Source of the DNA: a virus
Length of the DNA stretch: 64,000 nt
Direction: 5' to 3' (one strand)
Virus record (IMG/VR): IMGVR_UViG_3300035670_010555
Coordinates: 105,855 to 169,854 of that record
The notes below the pieces were generated by a model. The model was not told the origin of the DNA. It saw nothing but the letters and a program-made list of their open reading frames with translations, and did no database searches. A program made the position numbers and the translations under genes. Numbering within the stretch: the first letter of the stretch is position 1; every line of letters begins with the position of its first letter. Shown piece by piece: positions 3,479 to 61,385 of this stretch.

Positions 3479-3523
3479 CTAATCTTTTAAGATAAATATA
3501 CGGATTTGGATTGTTTGTTATTT

Positions 3524-26772: not shown

Positions 26773-27111
26773 TTAAGATAAAATCTGTATAAAGTAATAT
26801 GATAGCTTATATCCTGTGAAAGCCCCTAATGTAGATGGAATTGGAAATACTATTAACTTACCCAAATCTGTAACATATTTAGGTCTGTTAACAATTTTAC
26901 CCATAAAGAAATAATAAGTTAGATAACCTATTAAAACCGCCAAATCAGTTTTAGTTGCAATAAACACAATTAAAGTTGCAGCAATGAATCCAAAGATAAA
27001 ATTATCTCGGACTCCTTCCCAAATCTCATAAGGGCTCGCGTCTTTATATTCTTTTATAATCTTGTTGAATTTGGTTTTGTTACCAACCTTCCTTTTTATT
27101 TCAATTTCCAT
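26773..27111 (-). CDS. Membrane protein
   Basis: Three hydrophobic segments. Confidence 0.55.
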   Translation of the reverse strand: MEIEIKRKVGNKTKFNKIIKEYKDASPYEIWEGVRDNFIFGFIAATLIVFIATKTDLAVLIGYLTYYFFMGKIVNRPKYVTDLGKLIVFPIPSTLGAFTGYKLSYYFIQILS

Positions 27112-27112
27112 G

Positions 27113-27186
27113 TTGGGATAGGTGGACTCGAACCACCAACCTTTCGCGTATCAGACGAATGCTCTAACCAATTGAGCTATATCCCA
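27113..27186 (-). tRNA. tRNA-Ile(GAT)
   Basis: Cloverleaf, loop CT-GAT-AC. Confidence 0.9.
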
Positions 27187-27202
27187 TTATTGTAAGTAAA
27201 AG

Positions 27203-27276
27203 AGCGGGTAGTGAGATTCGAACTCACAACTTCCGACTTGGAAGGACGGCACTCTAGCCAATTGAGCTATACCCGC
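27203..27276 (-). tRNA. tRNA-Gly(TCC)
   Basis: Cloverleaf, loop CT-TCC-AA. Confidence 0.9.
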
Positions 27277-27285
27277 TTTTTTGTG

Positions 27286-27436
27286 CTGTAAGAGGTGGAT
27301 TCGAACCACCACGAGGAGATTCAACAAATAACATATCGCCGGCCGGCTGGTGGTCTACCCCCTCATATTATTTGTCTATTTCTTAATCCCCACCCCCGAG
27401 ACAGGAGGGCTTGTCTGCCAATTTCAACACCTTACA
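27286..27436 (-). ncRNA. tRNA-like RNA with GTC anticodon loop and about 80-nt variable arm
   Basis: TGTAAGG/TCTTACA acceptor, class-II-like D arm, CCCTC-CTGTCTC-GGGGG arm, long paired insert, GGTGG-TTCGAAT-CCACC T arm. Confidence 0.65.
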
Positions 27437-27441
27437 AAATG

Positions 27442-27526
27442 CAGAGAGTATTGGATTCGAACCAATGCATCCCTTTCGAGATGACAGATTAGCAATCTGC
27501 TCCTTTAACCACTCAGGCAACTCTCT
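27442..27526 (-). tRNA. tRNA-Ser(GCT)
   Basis: Cloverleaf with long variable arm. Confidence 0.9.
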
Positions 27527-27579
27527 ATTAATGTTCCAAAACTCACTTTTTTTTAATGTTTTGGACCCTGAATAACTTG

Positions 27580-27650
27580 ATGTCTCATCAGGATTCGAAC
27601 CTGAAATAACTGAACCAAAATCAGTTGTGTTACCGTTACACCATGAGACA
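27580..27650 (-). tRNA. tRNA-Gln(TTG)
   Basis: Cloverleaf, loop TT-TTG-GT. Confidence 0.88.
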
Positions 27651-27731
27651 GTTTAGACAGACCTTAGGAGACGTATTATTCTCTTCATTATCCTTGTACT
27701 TTAACACCGTGGGAAGCGTGTGTCTGTCTTG

Positions 27732-27813
27732 TGGGAACGATAGGACTCGAACCTATGAACTCCGAAGAGAGGGGTTTTACAGACCCCGGCAATTGCCGCT
27801 ATGCGACGTTCCC
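27732..27813 (-). tRNA. tRNA-Tyr(GTA)
   Basis: Cloverleaf with variable arm, loop CT-GTA-AA. Confidence 0.9.
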
Positions 27814-27952
27814 AAAATAAGGAAAGGAGAAGATGGTTCCGTGGACATCTCCTTTTACGATTGGCATTACTACGATGATTCCAAACTCCAAATGTACCAC
27901 CTCCATCATCAGGTTAACATACATTCCTTCCCCAATCAACCTTTATAACTAG

Positions 27953-28023
27953 CACACCCACCAAGACTCGAACTTGGAACAACGGTTTTGGAGACCGGTA
28001 TGATGCCATTTCACCATAGATGC
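27953..28023 (-). tRNA. tRNA-Trp(CCA)
   Basis: Cloverleaf, loop CT-CCA-AA. Confidence 0.85.
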
Positions 28024-28440
28024 TTACTTGTTCAACAACCAAGATGACGATTGAATTTTATCTCCTAGTCCATCAATTAATTTAACCCCTAACCAATCAC
28101 AAATCGGTGTCTCAGGGATGCTATTATTGTTTTGGTCTCCACCATTAGCGAATAGGAATTCGTCGTCCCTATCCCCCAAAGAATGAATCAATTCGATTGT
28201 CTTACACACAGTTCGATCTGTGTCAACTGAAAGAAATACTCTGTCAACCATTTTCAGATTTTGGATGATTAACATTCTCTCATTCTCATCTTGGAATTCT
28301 TTACTACCCTTCAACTCCCTCTGTTTGTCATTGTTGACAATGACATAGAGTTTGTCACCATGTTCTTTGGACTTATTGAAATATTCAATATGTCCCTTAT
28401 GAACAGGATTAAAATATCCGCTTACAATTACAATTTTCAT
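28024..28440 (-). CDS. Cytidylyltransferase-like (HIGH) nucleotidyltransferase
   Basis: SGYFNPVHKGH, VNND, FANGGD, KIQSSS. Confidence 0.85.
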   Translation of the reverse strand: MKIVIVSGYFNPVHKGHIEYFNKSKEHGDKLYVIVNNDKQRELKGSKEFQDENERMLIIQNLKMVDRVFLSVDTDRTVCKTIELIHSLGDRDDEFLFANGGDQNNNSIPETPICDWLGVKLIDGLGDKIQSSSWLLNK

Positions 28441-28625
28441 TTCGTTTCGTAGGTTAAAGTTTCTAATTCCAATTCACTTTCATAGAAATATGGACAAGCC
28501 CACCTAGGTTTATCACATTTAAGTTTTACCATCGATCCTCTGTAAAATCCAACCGCTACGACTGTCGCCCATCCTGAACATCTTGTTTTAACTCTATCTC
28601 CAACTTTTAATTCACTAAATGTCAT
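28437..28625 (-). CDS. Hypothetical SH3-like protein
   Basis: LKVGDRVK start, 62 aa. Confidence 0.45.
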   Translation of the reverse strand: MTFSELKVGDRVKTRCSGWATVVAVGFYRGSMVKLKCDKPRWACPYFYESELELETLTYETK

Positions 28626-28923
28626 CTTCTACGGTGTTTAATTCAAAGTTACTAAATTTTAGTCCCCACATCAAAGAAATCATAGACATTTCTCTTTCAG
28701 CCATTTTAGCATACAAACGAAGTTCTTTCATAAGGTATTTTTTACCCCACTTTTTCCATTCTTCGTTTTGTTCCATAGTCATAGTCCAATCAGTATACCA
28801 ACTATCCTTACGGTCCTTGATATCGTCATAGGTCACAGGATGACCTGCAATTTCGAACATCTTGTTTATCATATCGATAACCATTTTTTGTTTTTTCTGT
28901 TCTTTAGATAATCTTGGTTTCAT
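28615..28923 (-). CDS. Hypothetical phage protein
   Basis: 102-aa ORF. Confidence 0.55.
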   Translation of the reverse strand: MKPRLSKEQKKQKMVIDMINKMFEIAGHPVTYDDIKDRKDSWYTDWTMTMEQNEEWKKWGKKYLMKELRLYAKMAEREMSMISLMWGLKFSNFELNTVEDDI

Positions 28924-28948
28924 AATTTTCTTTGTTTATTGGTTGATG

Positions 28949-29022
28949 AGGTCAGAATCGGATTCGAACCGATGGATACTTGTTTTGCAGACAAGCCCCT
29001 TAAGCCACTTGGGTATCTGACC
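28949..29022 (-). tRNA. tRNA-Cys(GCA)
   Basis: Cloverleaf, loop CT-GCA-AA. Confidence 0.9.
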
Positions 29023-29033
29023 ATTTATAATGT

Positions 29034-29100
29034 GTCAGGACGGGTTTCTAACCCGCTCCTCAGTTAACTACTGTGTGCTGCCATTTACACCACCTGACTA
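29034..29100 (-). ncRNA. Minimal/degenerate member of the AGTCAGG tRNA-like family
   Basis: Same GTCAGG/CCTGAC acceptor; short CAGT-AGTTA-ACTG arm; T loop TTAGAAA. Confidence 0.55.
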
Positions 29101-29103
29101 TTG

Positions 29104-29175
29104 TGTGACCGAAGAGAATCGAACTCTTACCTGAAGTGCCACAAACTTCCGCCCTCCCACTAGGCTACGGCCACC
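29104..29175 (-). tRNA. tRNA-His(GTG)
   Basis: Cloverleaf, loop TT-GTG-GC, G-1 encoded. Confidence 0.85.
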
Positions 29176-29400
29176 ATATAATAATTTAGATTTCTAAAAC
29201 TCATCCTCGAAAGGGTAAAGAAACTCCATCTTATTTGTTTTTTGCGTAGTCAGGACAGGATTCGAACCTGTATTTGTGGAGCACCATCTCCAACGTCTGA
29301 ATCGAACAGAACCAATCAATCCTCTACGGGTGGTACATCTGCAGCTGTACCACTTATTCAAGAACAGCGTCTAACCAATTCCGCCACCTGACTATCCTAA

Positions 29401-29607
29401 TTATTTACCTCCTCCGTCACCATCAAGATATATCAATCTTACTGTTTCACCACTACCTATATTATGAATAGTAAAGGTAGGATATGAACCGTCTTCATTT
29501 CTTTTGTTAATAGTGTCAGTTGGCCAAATTTCAAAACCATGTTCCCAACACAGATGGTCTAATTTATCAATAAACTCATCAGTTTCTTTACTTATTTCTT
29601 TTTCCAT
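29401..29607 (-). CDS. Small hypothetical protein (cassette)
   Basis: 68 aa, AAAAGTTATG start context. Confidence 0.6.
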   Translation of the reverse strand: MEKEISKETDEFIDKLDHLCWEHGFEIWPTDTINKRNEDGSYPTFTIHNIGSGETVRLIYLDGDGGGK

Positions 29608-29616
29608 AACTTTTAA

Positions 29617-29718
29617 TTACAAAAGTCTATACCAAATCTTAATTGTCATATCTCTTTGAGGGGATGGTTTTAGTTTTGACCATCTGTCAATCCATTCTTT
29701 AATTTCTTCTTTACTCAT
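29617..29718 (-). CDS. Small hypothetical protein (33 aa)
   Basis: MSKEEIKEWIDRWSKLKPSPQRDMTIKIWYRLL, same AAAAGTTATG context. Confidence 0.5.
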   Translation of the reverse strand: MSKEEIKEWIDRWSKLKPSPQRDMTIKIWYRLL

Positions 29719-29740
29719 AACTTTTAATTTTTTCACCTGA

Positions 29741-29878
29741 CTATCCTAATTTCCACCACCTACCACATTTTTGACATTCTTGTGGTCCATATGCTTTATG
29801 CATTTTATGTTTATCTAAAACAAAATCATGTACAAATAAACACCATACGTTTCCAAATTGTCTAATAATCCATTTCAT
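29741..29878 (-). CDS. Small Cys/His protein (45 aa)
   Basis: C.FVH...C.KC; its TAG stop is the TAG of a TAGTCAGGTG repeat fragment. Confidence 0.5.
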   Translation of the reverse strand: MKWIIRQFGNVWCLFVHDFVLDKHKMHKAYGPQECQKCGRWWKLG

Positions 29879-29889
29879 ATATTTTTTAA

Positions 29890-30054
29890 TTAAAATATAA
29901 TACTTAATAAATGACCTATAAAAATACCTGTTGCTAAGGCTGATAACGATAGACTTACAAGTGTTTTTTTAGATAAATCTTTAATAAATGATGGTAGTAT
30001 CCAGCTTGATATTAATACTAACCATCCCACAATTACAGCAATTTCTATTTCCAT
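29890..30054 (-). CDS. Small 2-TM membrane protein (54 aa)
   Basis: Manual translation; AAAAGTTATG context. Confidence 0.55.
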   Translation of the reverse strand: MEIEIAVIVGWLVLISSWILPSFIKDLSKKTLVSLSLSALATGIFIGHLLSIIF

Positions 30055-30151
30055 AACTTTTATTTTTAGTTGTAGTCAGGACAGGATTCGAACCTGTGAT
30101 AGACGCTCCTTAGAGTCCGCTATCATGGCAACCAATTCCGCCACCTGACTA

Positions 30152-30464
30152 TGTTGAGAATGAGAAGTCCTCTGTGTTGTAGTGCACGATTATGTTTTCC
30201 ATAATTCAAGTAATGTCACTCATCTTTATGTCTCCTTTCTCAAGGGTACAACACATTTGTAGTCAGGACAGGATTCGAACCTGTACGAAGAGTATGTGTG
30301 TCTCTTCTCCTATGGGTTTACCTCAAGGGTTTCCACCTGCCATCGCACGTTGTAGCGTCTACCATTCCGCCACCTGACTATGTTGAGGATGAGAAGTCCT
30401 CTGTGTTGTAGAGTTTGTTTACTCTCTTATATGATAGCATTTCTTTCTCAAGGAAACAACACGT
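30152..30464 (-). ncRNA. Two copies of a putative kissing-loop RNA (30152-30256, 30381-30464)
   Basis: GTGTTGT..CCTTGAGAAAG[variable]CTACAACACAGAGGACTTCTCATYCTCAACA shared by both copies. Confidence 0.6.
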
Positions 30465-30765
30465 TGTAATGGAGTGGGTCTATTCCCCACAGTCAACAGA
30501 ACTTAAAACTTACCTACGAGAGAGAGGTATTCTGTATGATCGTTCCCATTGCCTAAACAGTGTCTAGTATGCCTTCGGTTGTCTCTCGTGTCAGTAGTCA
30601 GGACAGGATTCGAACCTGTATGCACTATTAAGGTAATGCTTTTGTATGTTTTTCAGTGTCCACTACAAGTTTCCTTAATTTTGTAGTAACTACTTTCATC
30701 CTCACATAACGTCTACCATTCCGCCACCTGACTAAATTACTTGTTTTCGATTATCAAGTTGATAG

Positions 30766-31089
30766 TTACAATTCGTAACGAGCCAATGCTGCGTCTGTGA
30801 TTTCCTTTGCTTTTTTACAAATCAACACATCTTCTGAATAAATATGATAAATTGAATCAGCTCCCAATTCGCTGAGTAATTGTGTTAACGCAACTGCGTA
30901 TAATTCAATATCGTCAGCCGTGTGAGACGAAGCAACTTCGCTTCTTGACATATTTCCGAAAACTTTAGAATGAGATCGTAAGTAATCGTGATGATATGTA
31001 TATGGAACTCGGCTTTTGCTATGTGGCAATTTATCAATTACTTCTAGAAACCGTTGAGGCAATGTACTATCTTCTTCTTTTCTGAACAT
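30766..31089 (-). CDS. Hypothetical protein
   Basis: 107-aa ORF between a repeat fragment and a full element. Confidence 0.55.
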   Translation of the reverse strand: MFRKEEDSTLPQRFLEVIDKLPHSKSRVPYTYHHDYLRSHSKVFGNMSRSEVASSHTADDIELYAVALTQLLSELGADSIYHIYSEDVLICKKAKEITDAALARYEL

Positions 31090-31133
31090 ATTTTCCCCTA
31101 TTTAGATATTACTATTTCACCACCTGACTATTT

Positions 31134-31343
31134 TTATTTTTCCAAAACGTACTTCATCATCTCTTGCATCTTGATAATCAAAAGTTCCATTTCATCCTTA
31201 TTAAGATACAACCTACCGTTTAATGTTTTATCATCCAACTCTTTGACTTCAACGATGATACCACCGAAACACTCAGTTGGATAAATTTCAACATTCTGTT
31301 CTTCGGTCGCAATAACTGTTTTGTTCCAAACTTTGTTTTTCAT
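31134..31343 (-). CDS. Hypothetical protein
   Basis: 69-aa ORF. Confidence 0.55.
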   Translation of the reverse strand: MKNKVWNKTVIATEEQNVEIYPTECFGGIIVEVKELDDKTLNGRLYLNKDEMELLIIKMQEMMKYVLEK

Positions 31344-31346
31344 AAC

Positions 31347-31616
31347 TTATTTATTTTTGAATTGTTCAAACCATTGTTCTAATGTTATCTTCTTTCCTGC
31401 TAACAAATCTTCTGTATGCTTATAAAGTATATTTAATACTTCTTCCTCGCTATACATTTTTTCTTGTTGTAATCTAGCAATGTGAATAAACATTGATTTT
31501 ATCCAAGTTTTTTCGTGAGGCTGTATTGTTTTTGCTTCTAATAACTCTAAGCTATAATTTTCAGCTGCTTCCTCAAGCTTGAATGCTTGTTCGTAAGGAA
31601 TAAATTCGGTTTTCAT
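31347..31616 (-). CDS. Hypothetical phage protein
   Basis: EFIPYEQA / LEEAAE / QEKMYSEEEV / WFEQFK. Confidence 0.6.
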   Translation of the reverse strand: MKTEFIPYEQAFKLEEAAENYSLELLEAKTIQPHEKTWIKSMFIHIARLQQEKMYSEEEVLNILYKHTEDLLAGKKITLEQWFEQFKNK

Positions 31617-31720
31617 TTCTCTTTACAGTTTAAGTTTCTCTCTTATTACTCCACTAATGTCCGAAAAAGATTTTACATCCACAAGGGATTTGTAAAATAT
31701 TTTATTTTTTTTTTTGGTAG

Positions 31721-31794
31721 TGACCCCGCCGAGATTCGAACTCGGGACTCCTTCATTAAAAGTGAAGTGCTCTAGCCAACTGAGCTACGAAGTC
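31721..31794 (-). tRNA. tRNA-Lys(TTT)
   Basis: Cloverleaf, loop CT-TTT-AA. Confidence 0.92.
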
Positions 31795-32780
31795 ATTTGT
31801 AGTCAGGACAGGATTCGAACCTGTATGTAGATTTTGTATGTACTTTTGGCTTTGAAATCATCTACTAATTTCTGTACCCTAGAATACATCGGCTGCACAG
31901 CACCATATACATACTCTCACAGCGTCTACCAATTTCGCCACCTGACTATTTTTGAAAAGATATGTGGTGTCGCTCCACTGCCTCTACAACCTAAGAATTT
32001 CGCTCAGAATAATTCCGTACTAATTCAAATTGCTAACAACACTTTTTTGAGTGTATATCCTTGTAGTCAGGACAGGATTCGAACCTGTATTGATTTACTT
32101 ATTGATTGGGTGTCAACTTAATGTCTTCCAATCAATCATCAATCTACCATTAGCTTTCGCCACCTGACTATATTAGGTTAGAGGCTGTTAACCATAAGGT
32201 CGTACGAAACATCACTTGTACTTCGTGTCAGGGAATCTCCCATACCTCTAAAGTAGTCAGGACAGGATTCGAACCTGTAATATGAAGTTATTCCCGATTA
32301 CCCTCGTTATTACCTTCATCCCTATTGAGTGGAGGGATTATATTTGACACCAATTTCGCCAACTGACTAATGTTTTTAGTTACTTTATCAACACTTCTCC
32401 AAGAACCACCTCGGCCAGTTTATATCAATTTCACTTAGGTTACGTCATGATTCTGCTGGTTAAGCGTCCTCAATCTAAACCTGTTTGTAGCCAGGACAGG
32501 TACTGCCCCTGTTGCTTGGTCTTTTGTTCACAGAGTGTCACTTATGATACTCTGTCAAACGTCACCCACGAGTTACTTTTACTCTACCTGACTATACTGT
32601 AATACCGTTTCTCTGGTTTTTACTTATGGTTTGTTCCCCATAACCTGTTGACGTGCACATCAGAGCAAGGACCTGTACAGTGTCTATCGAGCCGTTCCTC
32701 ACCTTCCAATTATGGTTGCGACCCATTCGGAAGTCGATAGTCCTTTCAGTGAAGCATTATCACCTTCTGTAGATATTACA

Positions 32781-32857
32781 TGGTACTCCGTACGGGGCTC
32801 GAACCCGTAAGCTCTCCCGTGAAAGGGGAGTGTCCTAACCAATTAGACGAACGGAGC
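32781..32857 (-). tRNA. tRNA-Glu(TTC)
   Basis: Cloverleaf, CCA encoded. Confidence 0.92.
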
Positions 32858-32862
32858 ATGTG

Positions 32863-32934
32863 AGCAGGTATCCGGATTCGAACCGAAATCTCCGGTTTGG
32901 AAGACCAGATCACTAACCGTTGTGCTATACCTGC
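32863..32934 (-). tRNA. tRNA-Gly(TCC), second copy
   Basis: Cloverleaf, loop CT-TCC-AA. Confidence 0.85.
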
Positions 32935-32950
32935 GGTTTAATCAACTATT

Positions 32951-33025
32951 TGGAGGGGAGGGAGAATTACGATATCTCGACCTATTCATTAACAGTGAAT
33001 TGCTCTACCTCTGAGCTACCTCCCC
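32951..33025 (-). tRNA. tRNA-Asn(GTT), atypical T loop
   Basis: Canonical D and anticodon arms, loop CT-GTT-AA; T loop ATCGTAA; CCA encoded. Confidence 0.75.
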
Positions 33026-33035
33026 TTCTGTCTTA

Positions 33036-33043
33036 CAAAGATA
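33036..33043 (-). promoter_or_regulatory. Bacteroidota -7 promoter element TATCTTTG upstream of tRNA-Asn
   Basis: TAnnTTTG with TTTG about 18 nt upstream. Confidence 0.6.
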
Positions 33044-33075
33044 CTACAATATTTCAAAGAACAAAAACATGTCAT

Positions 33076-33111
33076 AAAAAAACCCCAAACTTTTTTTAAG
33101 AGTTCGGGGTC
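33076..33111 (-). terminator. Attenuator terminator (3:4 hairpin)
   Basis: GACCCCGAACT-loop-AGTTTGGGGTT followed by T-tract. Confidence 0.85.
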
Positions 33112-33148
33112 TAAAAATTTAATTTAACTTAAATTAAAAAATTACTTT

Positions 33149-33238
33149 CTATGACATCCGAACTACAGGGCAAATACCTTCATACCAACATTTCTCTTGT
33201 TGACTATTACTGTTAATATGTTGACCTGTAGTTCTCAT
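33149..33238 (-). CDS. 29-aa leader peptide of putative tRNA-operon attenuator
   Basis: MRTTGQHINSNSQQEKCWYEGICPVVRMS*; overlaps hairpin segments 1 and 2. Confidence 0.75.
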   Translation of the reverse strand: MRTTGQHINSNSQQEKCWYEGICPVVRMS

Positions 33239-33296
33239 TGTATTAATAATTACTTCTAATGTATGAAATATTTTTATTTTGTCAAATGTTTTTTTG

Positions 33297-33370
33297 TATC
33301 CCCGACACGATTCGAACGTGTGACCCCAAACTTAGAAGGTTTGCGCTCTATCCAGCTGAGCTACGGAGAC
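33297..33370 (-). tRNA. tRNA-Arg(TCT)
   Basis: Cloverleaf, loop CT-TCT-AA. Confidence 0.92.
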
Positions 33371-33378
33371 AAATTAAA

Positions 33379-33543
33379 TTACTTCAATAAATCAATCTTT
33401 TTAGCAACTTCTTCGGCTTCTGCCATAATCCTGTCTGCATCTGTTCTGCTGAAATGAGAAACTTTATATGCGTTCTCCATCAACGTCTTATAAGTTTCCT
33501 GTAGTTTTTCTTTTTCTGTTTTCTTCTTAAATAATCCGAACAT
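33379..33543 (-). CDS. Lacal_2735-like small protein
   Basis: MFGLFKKKTEKEKLQETYKTLMENAYKVSH.SRTDAD...AEAE, flavobacterial family pattern. Confidence 0.7.
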   Translation of the reverse strand: MFGLFKKKTEKEKLQETYKTLMENAYKVSHFSRTDADRIMAEAEEVAKKIDLLK

Positions 33544-33581
33544 AATATGTGAATAACACTATCGTCTTTGAAAGTTTTTAT

Positions 33582-33833
33582 TTAATCTTTATGCCTTGCG
33601 GCGTTCAATCTACTTTCAAGTTTATCAAGTCGTGAATCAATTGTTCGATAAACATCATCAACAATTCTATCACGATCTCTCATTTGATTTTCAATTTCTC
33701 TTGCGAGAAACTGTTCTATTTGTTTAATTTCTTCCTTCTGTTTATTCACTCTAACAAAAGCAATAACCGCAACCACTGCCACAGCAATGACCACAACTAT
33801 AGACATTCCTAAAATAAATGATACTAAATCCAT
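33582..33833 (-). CDS. Membrane-anchored coiled-coil protein
   Basis: N-terminal TM, IDSRLDKLE. Confidence 0.6.
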   Translation of the reverse strand: MDLVSFILGMSIVVVIAVAVVAVIAFVRVNKQKEEIKQIEQFLAREIENQMRDRDRIVDDVYRTIDSRLDKLESRLNAARHKD

Positions 33834-33871
33834 ATAATCCTCTCCTTTATTTCAAAGAACGATAGTGTTTG

Positions 33872-33953
33872 TATCAGGAGAGGGAATCGAACCCTCACGG
33901 CCTAAGCCACAAGATTTTAAGTCTTGCGTGTCTACCTGTTTCACCACCCCGAC
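33872..33953 (-). tRNA. tRNA-Leu(TAA)
   Basis: Cloverleaf with variable arm. Confidence 0.9.
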
Positions 33954-33979
33954 ATTGTTTAACAAATATAATAAAAGTT

Positions 33980-34630
33980 TTAGATAATTTGTACTCGATG
34001 ATTCATTATTTCACAATATTTTTCATCGATTTCATAACTAATAGAATTGAATCCCAACTCTTGAGCAACCTTACTTGTTGTTCCACTTCCACCGAACACA
34101 TCAATAATTGTTTGATTTGGTTGTGCGGTTGTTAAAATAATTCTTCGAATTACTTCCTCAGGAATTTGACAAGGGTGTTCGGTTTTTTCCTTGCTAACAT
34201 TTTTGACTTGGTTGATTTCCCACCAATCATAAAGTTTGGCGCCAGTCTTTCCTTCGGCAATTCTTTTTTGAATACGTTTGTCTTTGAGATTTTTATATTC
34301 CTGTCTGACTTTCCTGAAGTCAGGCTTACAACCCCACCATGATATCAATCGACTTTGTTTTCCTGTGTTGGAGTTATACACCCAACAAACAACCTGTTCA
34401 CATTTGGCGTTGATTGCCTTTGGTAACAAGTTGATTGTTTCTTCGGGGTAATGAATAATGACACAAGGTGTTGGGATTTTGGATAATAATTCGATATAAT
34501 CCTGTTCGCTTAGTTTGTCTTTATATTCGTTGTAAGAATATTCTTGATTATAGGGTGGGTCGGTTATTGTTAATCCTGTTGGTATGTCGCAGTTTCTAAA
34601 ATCTTCGTTGATAATTGTTGTTTCCACCAT
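33980..34630 (-). CDS. DNA N4/N6 methyltransferase (beta class)
   Basis: TDPPYN, HPCQIP, DVFGGSGTT. Confidence 0.88.
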   Translation of the reverse strand: MVETTIINEDFRNCDIPTGLTITDPPYNQEYSYNEYKDKLSEQDYIELLSKIPTPCVIIHYPEETINLLPKAINAKCEQVVCWVYNSNTGKQSRLISWWGCKPDFRKVRQEYKNLKDKRIQKRIAEGKTGAKLYDWWEINQVKNVSKEKTEHPCQIPEEVIRRIILTTAQPNQTIIDVFGGSGTTSKVAQELGFNSISYEIDEKYCEIMNHRVQII

Positions 34631-34647
34631 AAATTTAATAAATCATT

Positions 34648-35346
34648 CTAAAATTCTTCTTCCCACAGTGTGTTGGATCTAGACTCTTCAATGTTGTATG
34701 CGTGTGATAATATAACATATTTTTTGTCAAAGTAAAATTGGAATTCTCCTTGAGATCCTTCATTTATTTCCCAACCTCCGAAGTTTTCTTCCAATTGTTG
34801 ATAACACCATTCTTCTATTTCGGATGGTACAGGTTGACCACTCTCAAAATTCGATTCGATGTATCCACTATCTCCCCCTCCATTATACTTCAAGACCAAA
34901 TAATCGTCTTCAGGAATTTCGGTCTCATCGAAAACTCCTTTTTCTTCCCACTCTTCAATCATATCATCGTATTCAACACCTTGTGAACCTCCCTCAGTTT
35001 GATAACTATACGTGTGAGTTAAAGAGATTTCTTTTTTAACACTATCAATCGTTATTTCGAATCCTTGATAATCGATGTAACCATCATTAGGTAACTCGCT
35101 ATATAATTCATCATCATCAACATAACTGATAATTTTTTTCAATATTGGTACAAGGCCGTCTGGAATTTCTGCGGTATAATTATTCTCAAAATGAGTTGGA
35201 AAATAATTTTCCCTGTATGAAATTTCTTCGTCGTCCGGTTCCATTTCAAATTGAATGTCTCCGTATGTCATTCCCAATGAAGCAAGATATCTCGAAACTT
35301 TACCTAAATATTTTTTTTCTTCTGGTGTTAATATATTTTGTGCCAT
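34648..35346 (-). CDS. DUF6878-like protein
   Basis: YNGGGDSG...GWEINEGSQG. Confidence 0.6.
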   Translation of the reverse strand: MAQNILTPEEKKYLGKVSRYLASLGMTYGDIQFEMEPDDEEISYRENYFPTHFENNYTAEIPDGLVPILKKIISYVDDDELYSELPNDGYIDYQGFEITIDSVKKEISLTHTYSYQTEGGSQGVEYDDMIEEWEEKGVFDETEIPEDDYLVLKYNGGGDSGYIESNFESGQPVPSEIEEWCYQQLEENFGGWEINEGSQGEFQFYFDKKYVILSHAYNIEESRSNTLWEEEF

Positions 35347-35357
35347 ACAAATAAATA

Positions 35358-35711
35358 TCAGTCTTCGAATTCTAATTTAATGGTCTTCAACATCCACTGA
35401 GGTCTTTGACTAGACGCAACATTATTAACCCATTCTTTAGCTGATGGAATGTAGTTATTACAATCTTCCTTGACATGTTGTTCACCGACATAACGGGTAT
35501 AAACTGTTTTCCCATCTGAGTTTTTGAATTCGGTACCAAATCTTTTTTCCATTTCAAATATTCCCTCACTATGGTGTCTAAACATTCTATGTAAGGAATC
35601 ACCAAACCATGACTTGGTTTCGTCTAACCATTCATGTAAATGAATGTAGTCCTCAGGTTTTCCACCAAACTTTTTGGCGGATGATTTTGCATGTAAGTTC
35701 GGATGTGCCAT
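35358..35711 (-). CDS. DUF6915-like protein
   Basis: MAHP..HA.SS..KFGG..EDY..LH.W.D, HR..RHHSEG, EQHV.ED. Confidence 0.7.
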   Translation of the reverse strand: MAHPNLHAKSSAKKFGGKPEDYIHLHEWLDETKSWFGDSLHRMFRHHSEGIFEMEKRFGTEFKNSDGKTVYTRYVGEQHVKEDCNNYIPSAKEWVNNVASSQRPQWMLKTIKLEFED

Positions 35712-35922
35712 TATGATTTAATTTGTGAAAAAAGATTGTAACGTCTGTACGGTTTGTTTCCCATCTACTCCTTTATACGAGTTTCAAAGGTTACCATTTC
35801 ATTCTTAGCGTCCGTTCCGTCATTCTTTCGAATCGTTACAATCTGTTTGTAAAAAAACACCCTATGTGTATAGTACCCTCACTTCCGGTTCCCAATCGAG
35901 TCCCTTCGTCATAGGGTGTTTG

Positions 35923-36007
35923 CAGAGGAGGAGGGATTCGAACCCCCGTTACCTTTCAGTAAAACGCTTTTCAAGAGCGCCGCGTTCAACCACTCTGCCA
36001 CTCCTCT
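35923..36007 (-). tRNA. tRNA-Ser(TGA)
   Basis: Cloverleaf with long variable arm. Confidence 0.92.
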
Positions 36008-36183
36008 AATTAAACCTAACATAATCAAATCGTCATTTGAATAGAGGTTAGGGGTGTGATTTTAGCTTATGCCTTGGGCTATTCACTTATCACGATACGA
36101 CCTCTGTGTTGTTCTTATGGTTAACATCGAGGTACAGACTTACCCTGGTACGCTGTTCTTATGGGTAGCGTGATAAGTACTGT

Positions 36184-36258
36184 TGGAGCTCCTATTCGGA
36201 ATCGAACCAAATTATCATGATTACAAGTCATGCGCATCGCCAGCAATGCTTTAGGAGC
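36184..36258 (-). tRNA. tRNA-Thr(TGT)
   Basis: Cloverleaf, CCA encoded. Confidence 0.85.
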
Positions 36259-36275
36259 TTATTATTAAATATCTG

Positions 36276-36349
36276 TGGGCCTGGTAGGAATCGAACCTAC
36301 TACCTTCACATTATGAGTGTGCCGCTCTAACCGAGTGAGCTACAGGCCC
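36276..36349 (-). tRNA. tRNA with CAT anticodon (Ile2 or elongator Met)
   Basis: Cloverleaf, loop CT-CAT-AA, GGGCCTG acceptor. Confidence 0.88.
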
Positions 36350-36473
36350 GAAGTATCGTAAATATTAACTATGTTTTTCTTCAAATCAACATGACAAAGG
36401 TAATAAAATTTTTCATTCACAACAACTTTCGTTTCTAAAAAAAATAAATTACTTTTGTTGAAATATTTGATAA

Positions 36474-41301: not shown

Positions 41302-42780
41302 TTATTTAATAATCTTCATTCTACTCATCATTTCATTAATTTTGGTTTTCTGATTGTGGAAAGATTCTTGTAAATCTTCATCTATGTCAAATTCTTCCTC
41401 ATCTTCAACTTCCATCTCATCGATTTCTTCTTCGTAATAACTCGATCTTTGATATGGTCCTGCCTTACCTGGCCCTTCAGAGTCAAAATCATATGGGGGG
41501 TCCATTTCACCATAAATTCCTTGGGAGCCTGATACATCGACTTCGTCTATTTCATCCGCAAATGCCGACTCCATGAACATAAAGTCCTCTTCTTCTTCCT
41601 CTTCTTGTCCTCCACATTCTTCCATATACTCTATGATTAAATCTTCACCGAACCAATCCTTACACAAATCATGAACTTCATAGTAGAAATCAGAATGTAA
41701 TTCTTGTTCAGTTTCAACAAAAAAAGTATCTAATGCATTAGAAATAACATTATCTGCATATTCAAATTCATCACCGAAGTCTTTGCAAGCATCGAATTGG
41801 TCTTTTTCATATTCAATAAAAGTTAACAAATTCGGATAAGTAATTCCTCTTCTTTTATATCTCATCATATCATCAGGAGACATTTCTTGTTCTTCCATTT
41901 CTCCTTCAGTTGGATAAACATCTCCACCAGCCATTGGTCCATCAGAAACAAAATCGTAAGCAGGTTTAATATTACTTAAGTCCATATCAGGAGCATTTCC
42001 ACCTCCTGTATAACCTTGTTCGTCGATAGTTTCTTTACCTTGTAATAAGTCTTTATCGATAAGACCTACTCTAATTAAACGATTCAATAATGTTTTTCTT
42101 GGTAATTTTCTTAAGTATCTGATTACAATTGGAGGAATATCGTCACCATATTGTCCAAACAAGTTATTTAGAATCTCATTTTCTTGAGGAGTTGGGATAA
42201 ATGAAGCTCTTGCTCGGGACGCTTTCATACCTCTTTTTCCCATCTCATAAGGTTTTCCGTCTGTAATATCTTCATCCATTTCTTCACCTGCTTGAATATC
42301 TTCAAACCCGTCGTCTTCATTGTCAGGGTCTTCGTATTCACCTTCCGATTTTATTTTTTTCATGTGATGCATTTTTTCAAATGTGCCATAATCATTACCA
42401 CCACCTTCAACATAGTCAAAGTCATTATCTCCTAAATCCTTAACGTTATAGATGTCGTCTAATTTACCAACACCTTCTTCCATTTCTCCTCCACCACATT
42501 GCTCACAAATACCTTCGGTCATTCGACCTCCACATTGCTCACACATTTCTTTGGATTCAACTTGTTCGTTAATTCCCATATTTGTATATTTCTTAACTTC
42601 ACCTTTGTTGTTTACAACCATTCCGTCTTTATCACCAGCAAAATCGTAAGTGTATAAAGGTTGGGTGTTAGACACCTGTGGTTGCATGGTTTGGTATCCA
42701 TTGTACAAACTTTTGTGTTGGTCCAAAATATTTTGTTTTTCAGTTGCGGACAATTGCCCTAATCCAAAGTATCCTCTCAT
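41302..42780 (-). CDS. Acidic protein with Zn-ribbon (probable head protein)
   Basis: CEQCGG..CEQCG; repeated PxYDF.S.GP motif; TATTTAT upstream. Confidence 0.55.
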   Translation of the reverse strand: MRGYFGLGQLSATEKQNILDQHKSLYNGYQTMQPQVSNTQPLYTYDFAGDKDGMVVNNKGEVKKYTNMGINEQVESKEMCEQCGGRMTEGICEQCGGGEMEEGVGKLDDIYNVKDLGDNDFDYVEGGGNDYGTFEKMHHMKKIKSEGEYEDPDNEDDGFEDIQAGEEMDEDITDGKPYEMGKRGMKASRARASFIPTPQENEILNNLFGQYGDDIPPIVIRYLRKLPRKTLLNRLIRVGLIDKDLLQGKETIDEQGYTGGGNAPDMDLSNIKPAYDFVSDGPMAGGDVYPTEGEMEEQEMSPDDMMRYKRRGITYPNLLTFIEYEKDQFDACKDFGDEFEYADNVISNALDTFFVETEQELHSDFYYEVHDLCKDWFGEDLIIEYMEECGGQEEEEEEDFMFMESAFADEIDEVDVSGSQGIYGEMDPPYDFDSEGPGKAGPYQRSSYYEEEIDEMEVEDEEEFDIDEDLQESFHNQKTKINEMMSRMKIIK

Positions 42781-42865
42781 AAGAATCTATTTTTAATATA
42801 AATACTTTTAATTTTTTATTTTTTCCATTTGACATTCTGAAACTTAAAATCTATTATTTTATTAC

Positions 42866-42940
42866 ACAAGTGAGACCTGTATTTTCATCCGATAGTATCT
42901 TGGTAATTTATTTATCGCCTCAATTTACGGGCTCACTTGT
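42866..42940 (+). ncRNA. Hairpin RNA with loop antisense to start of ORF 57053..57547
   Basis: 15-bp stem; 42879-42905 identical at 26/27 nt to 57538-57564. Confidence 0.65.
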
Positions 42941-42952
42941 TACTTAACTACT

Positions 42953-43207
42953 ATGACAATCAACGACTACGACATCCACGAATACGCTGAAGGTGCCATC
43001 ATTCTCGATGGACTTGATGAAGCAATTATCGGAATCGTTGAGGAGTTCGGCAACGGTCCTCGAATCCTTTATTCAAAAAACAAAATCCTTAACATTTTAT
43101 GTGAAAGAGATTTAATGACACATTCTGAGGCAGAAGAATTTTACGATTACAATATCATCGGTCTTTACGCTGGAGAACAAAATCCAGTATTCTTGGTCTC
43201 CGAGTAA
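42953..43207 (+). CDS. Conserved phage protein
   Basis: DG.DEAIIG...YS..KI...EAEEFYDYNI.G.Y.G...PVF. Confidence 0.7.
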   Translation: MTINDYDIHEYAEGAIILDGLDEAIIGIVEEFGNGPRILYSKNKILNILCERDLMTHSEAEEFYDYNIIGLYAGEQNPVFLVSE

Positions 43208-54936: not shown

Positions 54937-57066
54937 TTAGAAATTGTTATATCCTGTTAATTTTATTTGATTAGTATTCAAATTAATACCTAATTGATTT
55001 CCCTTCACCGCACTTGCGTCCATAGTTGAAGAAACTTTAATTGAGGTCAAGATGTCAACACCATTACCAATGGTTGAGAACTTTAATTTGAAAGGAGTTA
55101 AGTTTCCATTCAGAGGAGTTTTTTCACCTTGGTCTATGGCACCAAATTTAATTTTACCATTAACGGGATTTACAAATAAGTACCATGTATTTGGTAAATT
55201 TGGAGACAACTCTTCGAATTTTATCTTTGTTGGGTCATATTCAAACTCAAATTGTAGTCCTGTGACCAAATTTCCTTTTGTATTTATGTTAACGGGAATT
55301 TCGATACTATTTGAGGTTACAGTAACATTTGATAGATTAACATCTATGGATGGTACTGTATTAGGAGTGTTTATAAATGACTCCGTAGACATATATCTAA
55401 ATGCCGTGTTTGTTTTCAAACTATTTGATGCTCTACTCACTACGGATGCAACCCCATTGTTACTTACAACCACCTGAGATGAATGAGATCTATTGACGTC
55501 TCCCCACAAAAGATATTTCAAGTCCAATGTTGTGTTTGTTCCAATAGTCCCTGTTTTAATATAAGTTTTAGGGTAATCAAAAGAATTCCAATTGGAAGTT
55601 GTAATTGCTCCCCACGAATGAGATGGTGAGTTATTGAATATAAATTCTGATCTTATGCCGAAGTCAGGACCTCCATTAATATTTCTTATATATGGAGTAT
55701 AAGTTGATGTACCTATCGAAGGTATGCTAGATGGTATTCTAAAAGTTGCCCAAGTTGCATCTTTAGAAACAAATTCTACAGGTCCGACATACAAATCAAA
55801 TAACTGAAGGGACTTTATATTATCAGGTAAAATGTTTGTATTATCGAATTCTCTCAAGTCTATTAATATTCTTGACACATTTTGAGAATAATGGTTTGGT
55901 GTTAATACCGCCCATTCAACTTGTCCCGCGATAGTAGTTGCGTCAGTTGACATCCAAGTAGGGACACTGATATATCCACCACTACCTTGTGTATATCCAT
56001 CTGGAACTGTAACTAAAGCATCAATTCCGACAACTTGTGCTAATAATTTTGGTAAATCACCAGCATCGATTGTTTTATTTCTATTGATGTCTACGGCATA
56101 TAATGATTGTCCTGAATTTATTGTTTGTCCTTTACTACCATCCAATCCCATAGTTAAAAATTCACCCTGTGCTGAAGTGAAGTCGGAGATTGTAATGGAA
56201 CCATTATAAATCGTATTTAATTTATCTAATTCGTGCATTACCGAAACTTCATAAACTTTATTTTCTAATAATGATGCTTGGTTAATGTCAACGTTTCCGT
56301 TTGACAACACATTAAATTGTTGACCCACGTTTGTTAATGTATCTCTAAAAGATACTCTTAGGTTTGTTAAATTTAGTAAATTAGAATTTACATCAACTTT
56401 TGCAGTAACTAATTTTCCCGTATTTTGATTTAGTATTACATCGGTTGAAAGGGGTGAATCCATAATTGTTGGGATTATTGACCCTGAGCCATTCCAAGCC
56501 GCAACAAAATTCAATTTGACTGGATTAAATGAATTCGAGGTTGATGATTGTTTGACCCTAAATCTCATAATCAAAAATTGCGATGGAGATGTACCGTTTA
56601 CTCCGGTCGAGCTGGCCCATGTTAATATAATTCTCAAAATAGAATTTCCTCCATTTGGATTGAAGGAATAATTCAGTCCACTGGTAAATCTTGTACTACC
56701 ATTTGTGTTTGTTGTATTTCCAGCATAGGTATATCCGGGATAATTTTGCCAAGATAATTGCGGGTTAGAATTTTGTGGGAGAATACCTCCACTATCAACG
56801 GTTCCAGTATGATTTATGGAAACTAAGTCAAAATTGGCAATATCAAACTGTACATCAAATAATAATTGTCTTGTTTGTGTATCATTATTACCGTTTGCCA
56901 ATACAATAACATCAAACTCGTCGCCTCTATCAATTACTTCACCATTCAAATCTGTGATTGTCCTTTCATCGGATAGATTAAATCTCATATTCGATTGTCC
57001 AAAAGAAGCGAATGACATTAATAAAAGTGATACTAATAATATTTTTTTCATTTTAGTTTGTTTCAA
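54937..57066 (-). CDS. Secreted cohesin/dockerin-like multidomain protein
   Basis: Signal peptide; cohesin-like N and C domains (GLQFEFEYDP..I.F); dockerin/EF-hand-like DINRNKTIDAGD and GDVN. Confidence 0.6.
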   Translation of the reverse strand: MKQTKMKKILLVSLLLMSFASFGQSNMRFNLSDERTITDLNGEVIDRGDEFDVIVLANGNNDTQTRQLLFDVQFDIANFDLVSINHTGTVDSGGILPQNSNPQLSWQNYPGYTYAGNTTNTNGSTRFTSGLNYSFNPNGGNSILRIILTWASSTGVNGTSPSQFLIMRFRVKQSSTSNSFNPVKLNFVAAWNGSGSIIPTIMDSPLSTDVILNQNTGKLVTAKVDVNSNLLNLTNLRVSFRDTLTNVGQQFNVLSNGNVDINQASLLENKVYEVSVMHELDKLNTIYNGSITISDFTSAQGEFLTMGLDGSKGQTINSGQSLYAVDINRNKTIDAGDLPKLLAQVVGIDALVTVPDGYTQGSGGYISVPTWMSTDATTIAGQVEWAVLTPNHYSQNVSRILIDLREFDNTNILPDNIKSLQLFDLYVGPVEFVSKDATWATFRIPSSIPSIGTSTYTPYIRNINGGPDFGIRSEFIFNNSPSHSWGAITTSNWNSFDYPKTYIKTGTIGTNTTLDLKYLLWGDVNRSHSSQVVVSNNGVASVVSRASNSLKTNTAFRYMSTESFINTPNTVPSIDVNLSNVTVTSNSIEIPVNINTKGNLVTGLQFEFEYDPTKIKFEELSPNLPNTWYLFVNPVNGKIKFGAIDQGEKTPLNGNLTPFKLKFSTIGNGVDILTSIKVSSTMDASAVKGNQLGINLNTNQIKLTGYNNF

Positions 57067-57547
57067 ATAATTTAGTTACCAAGTTATCGCTCGCTTTCTT
57101 TAGAGCGTTACTTAATGATTGTTGATTGAAGTTTCCTCCACCGTCGACAATAAGAGTTGACATGGATATTTCGGAAGATTCTTCCTCCGCAATAACTTCC
57201 TTGACTTTTTTTCCATCGATTTTTAGAACTCCTTTCAATCTGATTACAACAGATTCTTTGTCTTTGTGAAATACAGAGACATTCGACTTGGTTTTTAATA
57301 CATCCAAGTAGATAATTTCAATAGATAATTTTTGATTGGAGTCGGGGTTTAGGTCGAAATTTTTTTCTTGTAAAAATTCCTCTGTGATGTTTCTCACACC
57401 GAATTCTAAATTTCGGTTTCCTGCGAGATTTCCTATTTGAATCTTGTTTACAACAGATTCAACCCATATTTCATTGGTAGTTTTTGTATTGTCGTGAGGC
57501 ATTATGGATAACATAATACTAGCCACGTATAGTAACAGTATTTTCAT
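57053..57547 (-). CDS. Secreted alpha/beta protein (CsgG/LptE-like), first gene of envelope operon
   Basis: Signal peptide; FGVRNITEE.L; S.ALKKA. Confidence 0.5.
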   Translation of the reverse strand: MKILLLYVASIMLSIMPHDNTKTTNEIWVESVVNKIQIGNLAGNRNLEFGVRNITEEFLQEKNFDLNPDSNQKLSIEIIYLDVLKTKSNVSVFHKDKESVVIRLKGVLKIDGKKVKEVIAEEESSEISMSTLIVDGGGNFNQQSLSNALKKASDNLVTKLFETN

Positions 57548-57670
57548 TCGATAGTATCTTGGTACTCATAAATATCACAAAATTTAATTTTGTCCTAAAT
57601 TTTTAGTTTGTGTCAAAGTGAATATCTTACTGTACTAAGACAATATTTATCAATATAAAAATAAATTACT

Positions 57671-58498
57671 ATGATACTAAAGAATGGGTCTAAAGGAGAA
57701 GACGTTAAAAAACTCCAAGTAAAATTAGGTTTGGGAACCGATGGCATATTCGGTTCTGGTACAGAAGCTGCGGTTAAAAAATGGCAAGCGGCTAATGGAT
57801 TAACTGCTGACGGTATTGTTGGTGAAGGTACTTGGACAAAGATGTTCGGAGAGAAGCAACTAATCACAGAGCCATCGACTCCAATCGTTAATGCAGGTCC
57901 TTTGAAGTTGGAAAATTTGAAGGGTCACATTCCTGATGTGGTACTTGCTCAGATTCCTGATTCTGCAAAGAAATTCAACATTTCAAATCCACTAAGATTG
58001 GCTCACTTTTTAGCTCAGTGTGGGCACGAATCTGCGGGATTCAAAGCAGTTCAAGAAAATCTTAACTATTCTGCTGATGGTTTGAAAAAAATATTTCCAA
58101 AATATTTTCCAGGAAATCTAGCAGAAGGTTACGCAAGAAACCCTGAAAAAATCGCTTCAAAAGTTTATGGAAGTAGAATGGGTAATGGAGATGAAACAAC
58201 AAAAGAAGGTTTCAAGTTTAGAGGTCGTGGATATATCCAATTGACAGGAAAGGATAACTATACCAGATTTGCCCAATTCATCGGTGAAGATACTGTATCT
58301 AATCCTGATTTAGTTGCAACAAAATACCCTTTGGCTTCAGCAGCATTTTTCTTTGACTCAAATAAATTGTGGGCAATTTGTGATAGGGGATCTGATGATG
58401 CAACAGTAACCGCAGTAACTAAAAGAGTTAATGGTGGTACAATCGGATTGGCCGATAGAATCAAACACTTCAAAGAGTATTTCGCACTTTTGAAATAA
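57671..58498 (+). CDS. Endolysin: peptidoglycan-binding domain plus GH19
   Basis: GSKGEDVKKLQ..DGIFG..T..AVK.WQ; HFLAQCGHES, ENLNYS, FRGRGYIQLTGK.NY, VNGG. Confidence 0.92.
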   Translation: MILKNGSKGEDVKKLQVKLGLGTDGIFGSGTEAAVKKWQAANGLTADGIVGEGTWTKMFGEKQLITEPSTPIVNAGPLKLENLKGHIPDVVLAQIPDSAKKFNISNPLRLAHFLAQCGHESAGFKAVQENLNYSADGLKKIFPKYFPGNLAEGYARNPEKIASKVYGSRMGNGDETTKEGFKFRGRGYIQLTGKDNYTRFAQFIGEDTVSNPDLVATKYPLASAAFFFDSNKLWAICDRGSDDATVTAVTKRVNGGTIGLADRIKHFKEYFALLK

Positions 58499-61057: not shown

Positions 61058-61309
61058 TTACTCTTCCACTTCTTCTTTTTTAGATTTATTAAGGAATTTA
61101 TCAACTGATCCAATTCCGAATGAACCTAAAACTAACCATAAGAAAGAATTAAAGATAAATTCATTTATCACTAAATCTTGTCCGAGGTAACCTGTTACAA
61201 TATCTGCAACTGCAAATATTATCATCATGATGAATGCCATGAATCCAACCACACTTTTTTCATTGATGGTGTTGCTGTCATTAAACAGCTGAGATAAGAA
61301 TTTTTTCAT
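61058..61309 (-). CDS. 2-TM holin-like protein
   Basis: INEKS..GF.AF...GSFGI..VDKF. Confidence 0.5.
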   Translation of the reverse strand: MKKFLSQLFNDSNTINEKSVVGFMAFIMMIIFAVADIVTGYLGQDLVINEFIFNSFLWLVLGSFGIGSVDKFLNKSKKEEVEE

Positions 61310-61385
61310 AGTATTTGGTAATTTACTTACCAATAAATATTATAAAAAATCGGGTATTGTAGTTGTCTTCGAAAAAAAATAGTTC

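Follow-up and report, generated by a model that had tools for sequence, protein, structure and literature searches.

In phages P1 and P7, the c4 RNA (the C4 family of Rfam) is a small hairpin RNA whose loops pair in trans with a leader and block translation downstream. It is cut from a precursor in a temperate phage, where it controls an antirepressor for immunity. In type I toxin–antitoxin pairs such as hok/sok, a structured antisense RNA pairs with a leader and holds back a small hydrophobic membrane protein. In T4-type phages, control after transcription is known to be exerted by the proteins RegA and RegB and by cis-acting hairpins, and the T4-type late promoter is TATAAATA, with no -35 element.

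Among other phage antisense RNAs, sar of P22 blocks initiation of ant translation, OOP of lambda promotes degradation of the cII mRNA, aQ lowers Q expression by a route that the review does not state and is proposed to act in cis, and PAK_P4as15 is associated with an endolysin gene and proposed to delay lysis (PMC12197685). Hfq-type trans-encoded sRNAs, such as VpdS and PreS, are transcribed from a promoter of their own, end in a hairpin followed by a U-tail and use a conserved seed against several targets; phage sRNAs of this type mainly retune host messages (PMC12197685). In T4, leader hairpins of gene e, soc and I-TevI act on translation and keep early and late expression of lysis-related genes apart; the late promoters lie just upstream of the start codons, and inhibition comes in cis from the 5′ portion of the early transcript itself (PMC3014915). 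According to a review of the field, T4 itself had yielded no characterised trans-acting regulatory RNA, but candidates might be sought in genomes of its relatives (PMC3014915). The element described here, at 42.9 kb, is such a trans-acting candidate in a T4-related phage.

The window, by which we mean the whole 64,000-nt stretch of DNA that was analysed, belongs to an IMG/VR contig of 169,854 bp whose completeness was judged to be 56%; relatives with complete genomes measure ~320–326 kb. The portal protein is gp20-like, and the isolates closest to it are Microcystis phage Mel-JY01 (39% identity) and the Flavobacterium ‘immuto’ phages (37%), which marks the phage as a distant T4-type jumbo myovirus. 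A search of the locus DNA against 50,697 phage records returned zero matches, leaving no isolate similar at the DNA level, and relatives were therefore collected through proteins and motifs instead. Set A was gathered with the neighbouring 492-aa protein, for which no family was found (37 loci, identity down to 42%), set B with the 164-aa protein encoded by the first target described below (n = 17, 72–98% identity), and set C by scanning IMG/VR with the loop 16-mer (at least 118 contigs, with 115 usable contexts among the matches listed).

At 42.9 kb, a promoter, a hairpin and a T-run together have the layout of a small RNA gene on the plus strand, as judged from the DNA alone. Its parts, and the gene that follows, are:

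42829–42857, plus strand: putative small RNA promoter, with TTGACA at 42829–42834, a 17-nt spacer and TATTAT at 42852–42857; 11 of 12 consensus positions
42866–42940, plus strand: small RNA hairpin predicted by folding, 5′ arm 42866–42881, 3′ arm 42926–42940
42890–42895 with 42912–42917, plus strand: inner stem predicted by folding, closing the apical loop 42896–42911
42953–43207, plus strand: 84-aa gene (phrog_13182), 13 nt after the hairpin

The RNA is predicted to start at ~42864–42866. Its promoter is among the two best such sites between 40 and 60 kb, and across the whole record TTGACA-type promoters show no enrichment (19 against 23 expected). In 49 related loci the -35 element reads TTGAC(A/T) and the -10 element, 3–9 nt before the stem, reads TAnnnT; the spacer between them is 17 nt long in 46 of the 49 and variable in sequence. 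Promoter and long hairpin are both present in at least 75 metagenomic contigs (75 of the 115 usable contexts among the matches listed).

The outer stem comprises 9 bp, a bulged A42875, and 6 bp including U42878.G42929. A preliminary description, drawn from the window alone, had proposed a stem whose G.U pair favours the plus strand, and the segment indeed folds in this manner, reaching -25.2 kcal/mol on the plus strand (z -5.7; 0 of 200 shuffles as good) against -21.5 kcal/mol on the minus strand. The plus-strand fold is the more stable one in 14 of 21 sequences. Wobble pairs were also tried as evidence of strand: with 64 G.U against 36 A.C, or 49 against 36 once one pair is left out, the asymmetry is weak and favours the plus strand only weakly, and the test was set aside.

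The stem of the hairpin shows compensatory changes. Stems differ by clade yet remain paired (ACAAGTGAG, ACAGGT, AAGGGAGAG, CCCACACAG, ACGAGTGGG and others). Across an alignment of 50 sequences, 87.7% of cells are paired, compared with 35–45% when partners are slid; the covariation score is 0.268, compared with 0.05–0.10 in slid controls, and was reached by 0 of 500 shuffles; double-change cells number 55, with 20.5 expected. In most clades the inner stem pairs GAUAGUA with UACUUAUC and closes an 11-nt apical loop, UCUUGGUAAUU. The near-invariant apical region of the RNA reads AGUAUCUUGGUAAUUUAYUUA, and its core, AGTATCTTGGTA, is present in all 35 set-A relatives with upstream sequence, except L049. 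The inner stem alone can explain part of this loop conservation (GAUA/UAUC, GUA/UAC).

A T-rich tail follows the stem in 42 of the 50 sequences, directly so in most clades outside the window's own. The window's tail, TTACTTAACTACT, is a degraded T-run that leads into the 84-aa gene and in which no terminator was predicted; release of a discrete small RNA is therefore uncertain at this locus. Given the decayed T-run and an 84-aa gene that starts 13 nt past the stem, the window hairpin serves, at a minimum, as 5′ leader to this operon. The 84-aa gene also lies downstream of the small RNA in many other clades. The preliminary description had called the RNA an operon leader; this holds in the window, whereas in most relatives the layout is that of a free-standing, terminated small RNA. 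Because the gene upstream of the hairpin lies on the opposite strand, the hairpin is not the terminator of another transcript.

This arrangement raises the possibility that the main role of the hairpin is in cis, as leader or attenuator of the early operon: with the T-run it would govern the passage of transcription or translation into the 84-aa gene, and the abundant late leaders would pair with the early leader to shut or open it. In the window the hairpin is physically the leader of the 84-aa gene, with its 3′ arm inside the ribosome footprint of the start codon, and in many clades the ATG of this gene comes 3–15 nt after the T-run. However, terminated hairpins with no 84-aa gene behind them occur in the L187, L147, L202, L183, L189 and L197 types, and in the close relative G009 an identical promoter is joined directly to the same 84-aa gene without any hairpin. 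A purely local role would also leave the conserved leaders of two specific late genes unexplained. We consider it unlikely that attenuation is the main function, but an attenuator role does not exclude antisense pairing in trans, and the two may coexist.

Searches of Rfam 15 with the window and five diverse relatives gave no family match, the C4 family included. The only match over the small RNA, at chance level, was to snoR41 (15.6 bits against a gathering score of 40), and a second sub-threshold match, to Phe_leader (28.8 against 55), lay elsewhere in locus L172. A minus-strand mini-ORF, MKIQVSLV (start 42887), was considered as a candidate and rejected, its stop not being conserved and its ATG being absent in other clades.

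The preliminary description rested on a repeat that links this hairpin to a gene 15 kb away, and we recovered that repeat: positions 42879–42905 and 57538–57564 are identical at 26 of 27 bases, differing only at C42889 versus T57548. The window holds exactly two copies of the 27-mer at up to 3 mismatches, and the whole 169,854-bp record likewise only two; 100 dinucleotide shuffles yielded 0, in keeping with the earlier judgement that chance is an improbable source. When the two intergenic regions are aligned, the identity is sharply bounded and the flanks are unrelated. Site 1 lies between the divergent genes 41302–42780 (minus) and 42953–43207 (plus), site 2 between the divergent genes 57053–57547 (minus) and 57671–58498 (plus), the latter encoding the endolysin. 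A genome-wide search for more pairs of loop and start codon had been suggested at the outset; there is no third copy of the 27-mer, and a second target was recognised at ORF 61309. The features at the first target are:

42879–42905, plus strand: segment matching the leader and start of ORF 57547 in antisense at 26 of 27 bases, with the anti-start CAT at 42885–42887
57568–57574, minus strand: TATTTAT, late-type promoter motif at target 1, separated from the core by 3 nt in 17 of 17 relatives
57538–57564, minus strand: target 1, comprising the entire predicted 5′ leader, the start codon 57547–57545 and 7 more coding nt
57053–57547, minus strand: gene for a 164-aa protein whose N-terminus contains a hydrophobic helix; it heads a late operon on the minus strand

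The ORF starts at the CAT at 57545–57547, and the match accordingly covers 17 nt upstream of the gene plus 10 coding nt, as previously described. It had also been said to end near TATTTAT, close to the expected 5′ end of the mRNA; the motif does lie 3 nt upstream, and it turns out to be a general motif that resembles a late promoter. TATTTAT is found 4–25 nt upstream of ~45 ORFs in the record, including those for the portal, prohead protease and endolysin (examples in the window start at 3498, 6837, 14459, 17666, 35357, 40296, 48993 and 57644). Since it precedes these three genes, it behaves like a late promoter, although no transcription data bear on this. Only 4–5 nt separate the motif from the ATG in many ORFs, which would make late messages leaderless or nearly so, and from such gaps in several ORFs we infer that transcripts start ~5 nt after TATTTAT. 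TATTTAT is the reverse complement of T4 TATAAATA minus one base, yet here it is read in the sense direction. With the transcript start inferred in this way, the leader of target 1 would be ~16 nt long and lie wholly inside the complementary segment.

Self-pairing apart, no other site in the record comes close to target 1 in the predicted strength of its duplex with the loop (-35.8 kcal/mol, z -7.1). All 17 set-B relatives keep the order TATTTAT, 3 nt, TACCAAGATACT, 2–5 nt, ATG, while the remaining intergenic DNA is unalignable, and the same arrangement recurs in the more distant genomes G002 and G004–G008. A C.A mismatch at -2 of the AUG is fixed and stays uncompensated in nearly all close relatives.

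This conservation bears on whether the copy at 42.9 kb is merely a functionless remnant, left by duplication or gene conversion of the 57547 gene start inside an unrelated hairpin. Such an origin would account for the ATG and 7 coding nt that the window clade carries at 42.9 kb, where they open an 8-codon minus-strand frame. However, conservation is lacking for that mini-frame, whose ATG is missing from other clades; both loci retain the core even where identity of the neighbouring protein has fallen to 42–59%, and shuffles lead one to expect no such match. Conservation this deep excludes a neutral duplication remnant, and we regard this explanation as very unlikely, with almost no claim left on the data.

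Target 1 opens an operon that the preliminary description had assigned to CsgG and cohesin. The next gene, ORF 54937–57066, does contain a cohesin domain, but CsgG was not confirmed by Pfam for the 164-aa protein, which matched no Pfam family at threshold (Lipoprotein_16 reached 14.9 bits, below the cut-off). Its AF2 model (pLDDT 73) gave LptE, PelC and PqiC as top Foldseek matches, with E ~1e-5 and TM ~0.5, and at this model quality the fold may be described as LptE/PelC-like. The N-terminal region contains no cysteine and is thus without a lipobox cysteine. In some genomes the first gene after the leader TATTTAT-N3-TACCAAGATAC is a different one (the MATRK... family), or the leader that follows is longer and contains a small hairpin of its own; genomes in which gene or leader after this cassette is altered are L153/L314, L157/L286, L230/L294, L154/L300, L156/L297 and L204/L271. 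With the same leader standing before different first genes, the cassette of promoter plus leader seems to be mobile between gene heads.

The second target, which the preliminary description did not include, is the leader and start of an 83-aa protein at 61309:

42891–42914, plus strand: segment antisense to ORF 61309, pairing over 15 bp with one G.U, a bulged C42899, 5 bp and 2 bp
61307–61339, minus strand: target 2, with TATTTAT at 61339–61333, then tgg, TAAGTAAATTACCAA at 61329–61315, ATACT and the ATG at 61309–61307
61058–61309, minus strand: gene for an 83-aa protein with two hydrophobic segments and a charged C-terminus

The 15-mer of target 2 is complementary to the other half of the loop, 42900–42914, and after the bulge the predicted pairing reaches the AU of the start codon. 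RNAduplex gives -27.1 kcal/mol, which falls within the noise tail of the record; duplex energy does not separate this target from noise, and its support comes from position and conservation. In loci L078–L102, at 76% identity or above, the 15-mer and its 3-nt distance to TATTTAT are kept, and the flanks vary, including the bases before the ATG. The 15-mer is absent from more distant homologues of the 83-aa protein. This protein belongs to no Pfam or PHROG family, and the Atlas places it only among viral hypothetical clusters. Its gene lies 2.6 kb from the endolysin gene. In the absence of a family, ‘holin-like’ is used here only as a description of its size and layout.

We then examined small RNA and targets together. 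The window and at least 39 further contigs carry both the small RNA and the leader TATTTAT-N3-TACCAAGATAC. Loss of the match in relatives that hold both loci would have spoken against the proposed pairing, and complementarity is kept in every such relative. The two sites lie on the same DNA strand in some genomes and on opposite strands in others; every genome inspected has the motif in sense orientation at the target, and in antisense orientation relative to the small RNA's own promoter and terminator. An arrangement of sense and antisense that is independent of DNA strand fits a relationship at the level of RNA, not DNA.

Complementarity also extends beyond the core in a clade-specific manner. 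Over the next 14 positions, small RNAs score 9.25 with their own target and 7.66 with the targets of other clades (permutation p ~2e-4; 16 clade representatives, no phylogeny correction). In several clades the distance of the anti-AUG from the core matches that of the target's AUG, a distance that varies between clades. In a complete 326-kb relative, the three longest ungapped complementary stretches measure 18, 16 and 16 nt and are all intergenic; noise reaches 15 nt. The last of these stretches gains 10 nt after one mismatch. Two of the three are targets 2 and 1, between TATTTAT and ATG. The anatomy of the element, its conservation, the complementarity, the flank co-variation and the joint presence or absence of small RNA and targets are thus matters of observation.

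The hairpin-less G009 offers a case of joint absence: its 111-kb contig lacks the leader motif as well as homologues of the two target genes, and its sister G012 retains the hairpin. As both contigs are fragments, this supports the link between small RNA and targets without proving it. Comparison of loci L387/L388 with L389/L480 in these close relatives shows that the entire hairpin is either present or absent, the same promoter leading into it or straight to the ATG of the 84-aa gene. Matched changes of the core at both sites were not seen; the sole loop variant found, GTATCCTGGTA, occurs in G012, with the target off the contig. For the variant loop of the G012 lineage, GUAUCCUGGUA, a search for the target returned one TATTTAT-N3-TACCAGGATAC match, in a coding region of an unrelated record, and the other 25 matches to the variant 16-mer were chance matches in coding regions.

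A fourth conserved site, TTATCAAGATACTATT, was seen at G000:C1:46515 and G001:C1:75374; 16 nt of it, including one G.U, can pair with the loop. It is intergenic, just upstream of TATTTAT and overlapping it, and would become RNA only by read-through from the preceding gene; lying upstream and not downstream of the motif, it may never enter an mRNA leader.

Could the shared sequence act as DNA? A phage DNA-binding regulator might recognise it as an operator placed over late start sites and in the early leader, with RNA complementarity a by-product. The motif begins exactly 3 nt after TATTTAT in the targets, a typical repressor position, and a DNA site reads the same on either strand. Against this, the TACCAAGATACTAT core is not palindromic and has no dyad symmetry, and targets 1 and 2 share only TACCAA, each matching a longer and different part of the loop. 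Nor would an operator explain the clade-specific extensions that continue through the start codon, or the covarying stem, conserved promoter and T-run around the copy at 42.9 kb. In our assessment an operator is improbable.

A second DNA-level reading holds that the motif is a promoter-like element on the plus strand, given the likeness of TATCTTGG to the Bacteroidota -7 box TAnnTTTG. Flavobacterium phages are among the nearest isolates, a similar GTAGTATCTTTGTA occurs just upstream of the tRNA array, and a near-identical TACAAAGATAC(TAC) at window position 33034, before the minus-strand tRNA array, is kept in G009, G010, G012 and G013. The -33 TTTG, however, is missing at the right distance, a promoter at site 2 would fire antisense to the gene, and such boxes need no identity of 12–27 nt that co-varies between sites through the start codon. 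We give this reading scarcely any credence.

Some further features of the window were recorded. The site just upstream of the first tRNA, at 33034–33047 (plus strand), reads TACAAAGATACTAC, one base off the small RNA core, and on the tRNA strand it is TATCTTTG, a perfect Bacteroidota-type -7 box; a TTGACA-N16-TACATT site lies near it, at ~33285 (minus). The tRNA array itself (27100–36400, minus) is dense, with repeated constant ends that include 7 copies of GTAGTCAGGACAGGATTCGAACCTGTA and 9 of the CCACCTGACTA block. Long imperfect repeats of 6/12/18-nt period, with GTTGGAGT-type units, span 12600–13440 and 61990–62110 and encode Thr/Pro-rich tracts on the minus strand, in ORFs 12404–13651 and 61386–62465. 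Tandem duplications lie within coding regions at 1221–1478 (129 nt twice, 91% identity), 1696–1836 (a 24-nt unit five times, an acidic repeat) and 9970–10178 (92 nt twice, spacing 117 nt).

Returning to antisense pairing, we consider it probable that the element is a trans-acting antisense RNA regulator of late messages, a conclusion reached with no expression data. The preliminary description is supported in every part that sequence comparison can address; the silencing that it proposed remains an inference. In our working model, 42829–42940 would be the gene for a small RNA of ~75 nt on the plus strand, driven by a sigma-70-type promoter and, in the window, running on into the early 84-aa operon as its 5′ leader. 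The RNA would form a long single hairpin whose apical region pairs in trans with very short leaders and start codons. The paired messages would be those of ORF 57547, the LptE/PelC-like head of the cohesin operon, and ORF 61309, the 83-aa protein with two predicted transmembrane segments, both presumably transcribed from TATTTAT late-type promoters. First contact may be made between the loop sequence CUUGGUA and UACCAAG at the 5′ end of the message, after which the duplex would extend over the start codon. With pairing from about the first base of the leader through the AUG, binding of the 30S subunit should be blocked, and the 27-bp duplex with target 1 could be a substrate for a double-strand RNase.

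Transcription of the RNA is itself inferred in this model, as is repression as the sign of the effect; the timing, meaning early synthesis and a delay or threshold, is inferred from promoter types. An RNA made before or alongside the late messages would impose a delay or threshold on two envelope proteins relative to other late genes. More tentatively, and with more doubt than conviction, we suggest that an undescribed, widespread family of small RNAs serves as a molecular timer, in which an RNA from a host-type promoter titrates the nearly leaderless holin-like and LptE/PelC-like messages and sets the moment of envelope attack or lysis. If titration operates, both proteins would appear only once late transcription exceeds the RNA pool.

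The candidate design is unusually clear, consisting of a promoter, one hairpin, a terminator, a near-invariant loop and two defined targets. It provides a directly testable model of how a large virulent phage separates envelope-active proteins from late genes that share their promoter type, and the 12-nt seed is a handy marker for this uncultured phage group. If such a timer exists, it would give T4-related phages their first trans-acting regulatory RNA whose targets are defined.

How, then, does the element compare with the systems set out above? Unlike c4, the small RNA has its own promoter and terminator, resides in a T4-like jumbo phage of virulent type, and has late envelope targets 15–18 kb away. 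It differs from hok/sok in that the 83-aa protein has not been shown to be toxic, and in that the small RNA is encoded 18 kb away without overlap and has a second, unrelated target. Where the T4 leader hairpins act within one early transcript, here a separate RNA would act on the late transcript itself. In contrast to VpdS and PreS, the element has two recognised targets that are late genes of the phage itself, and its seed is placed inside the loop of the terminator hairpin. It resembles sar, OOP, aQ and PAK_P4as15, each a phage small RNA that pairs with a phage message and lowers expression, an effect that is inferred in our case. Those four overlap or are associated with the genes that they control (a point made outright only for aQ in PMC12197685), whereas the RNA described here is encoded elsewhere, is only partly complementary (12–27 nt) and has at least two targets. 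The element would work like known phage antisense RNAs but belongs to none of the described families.
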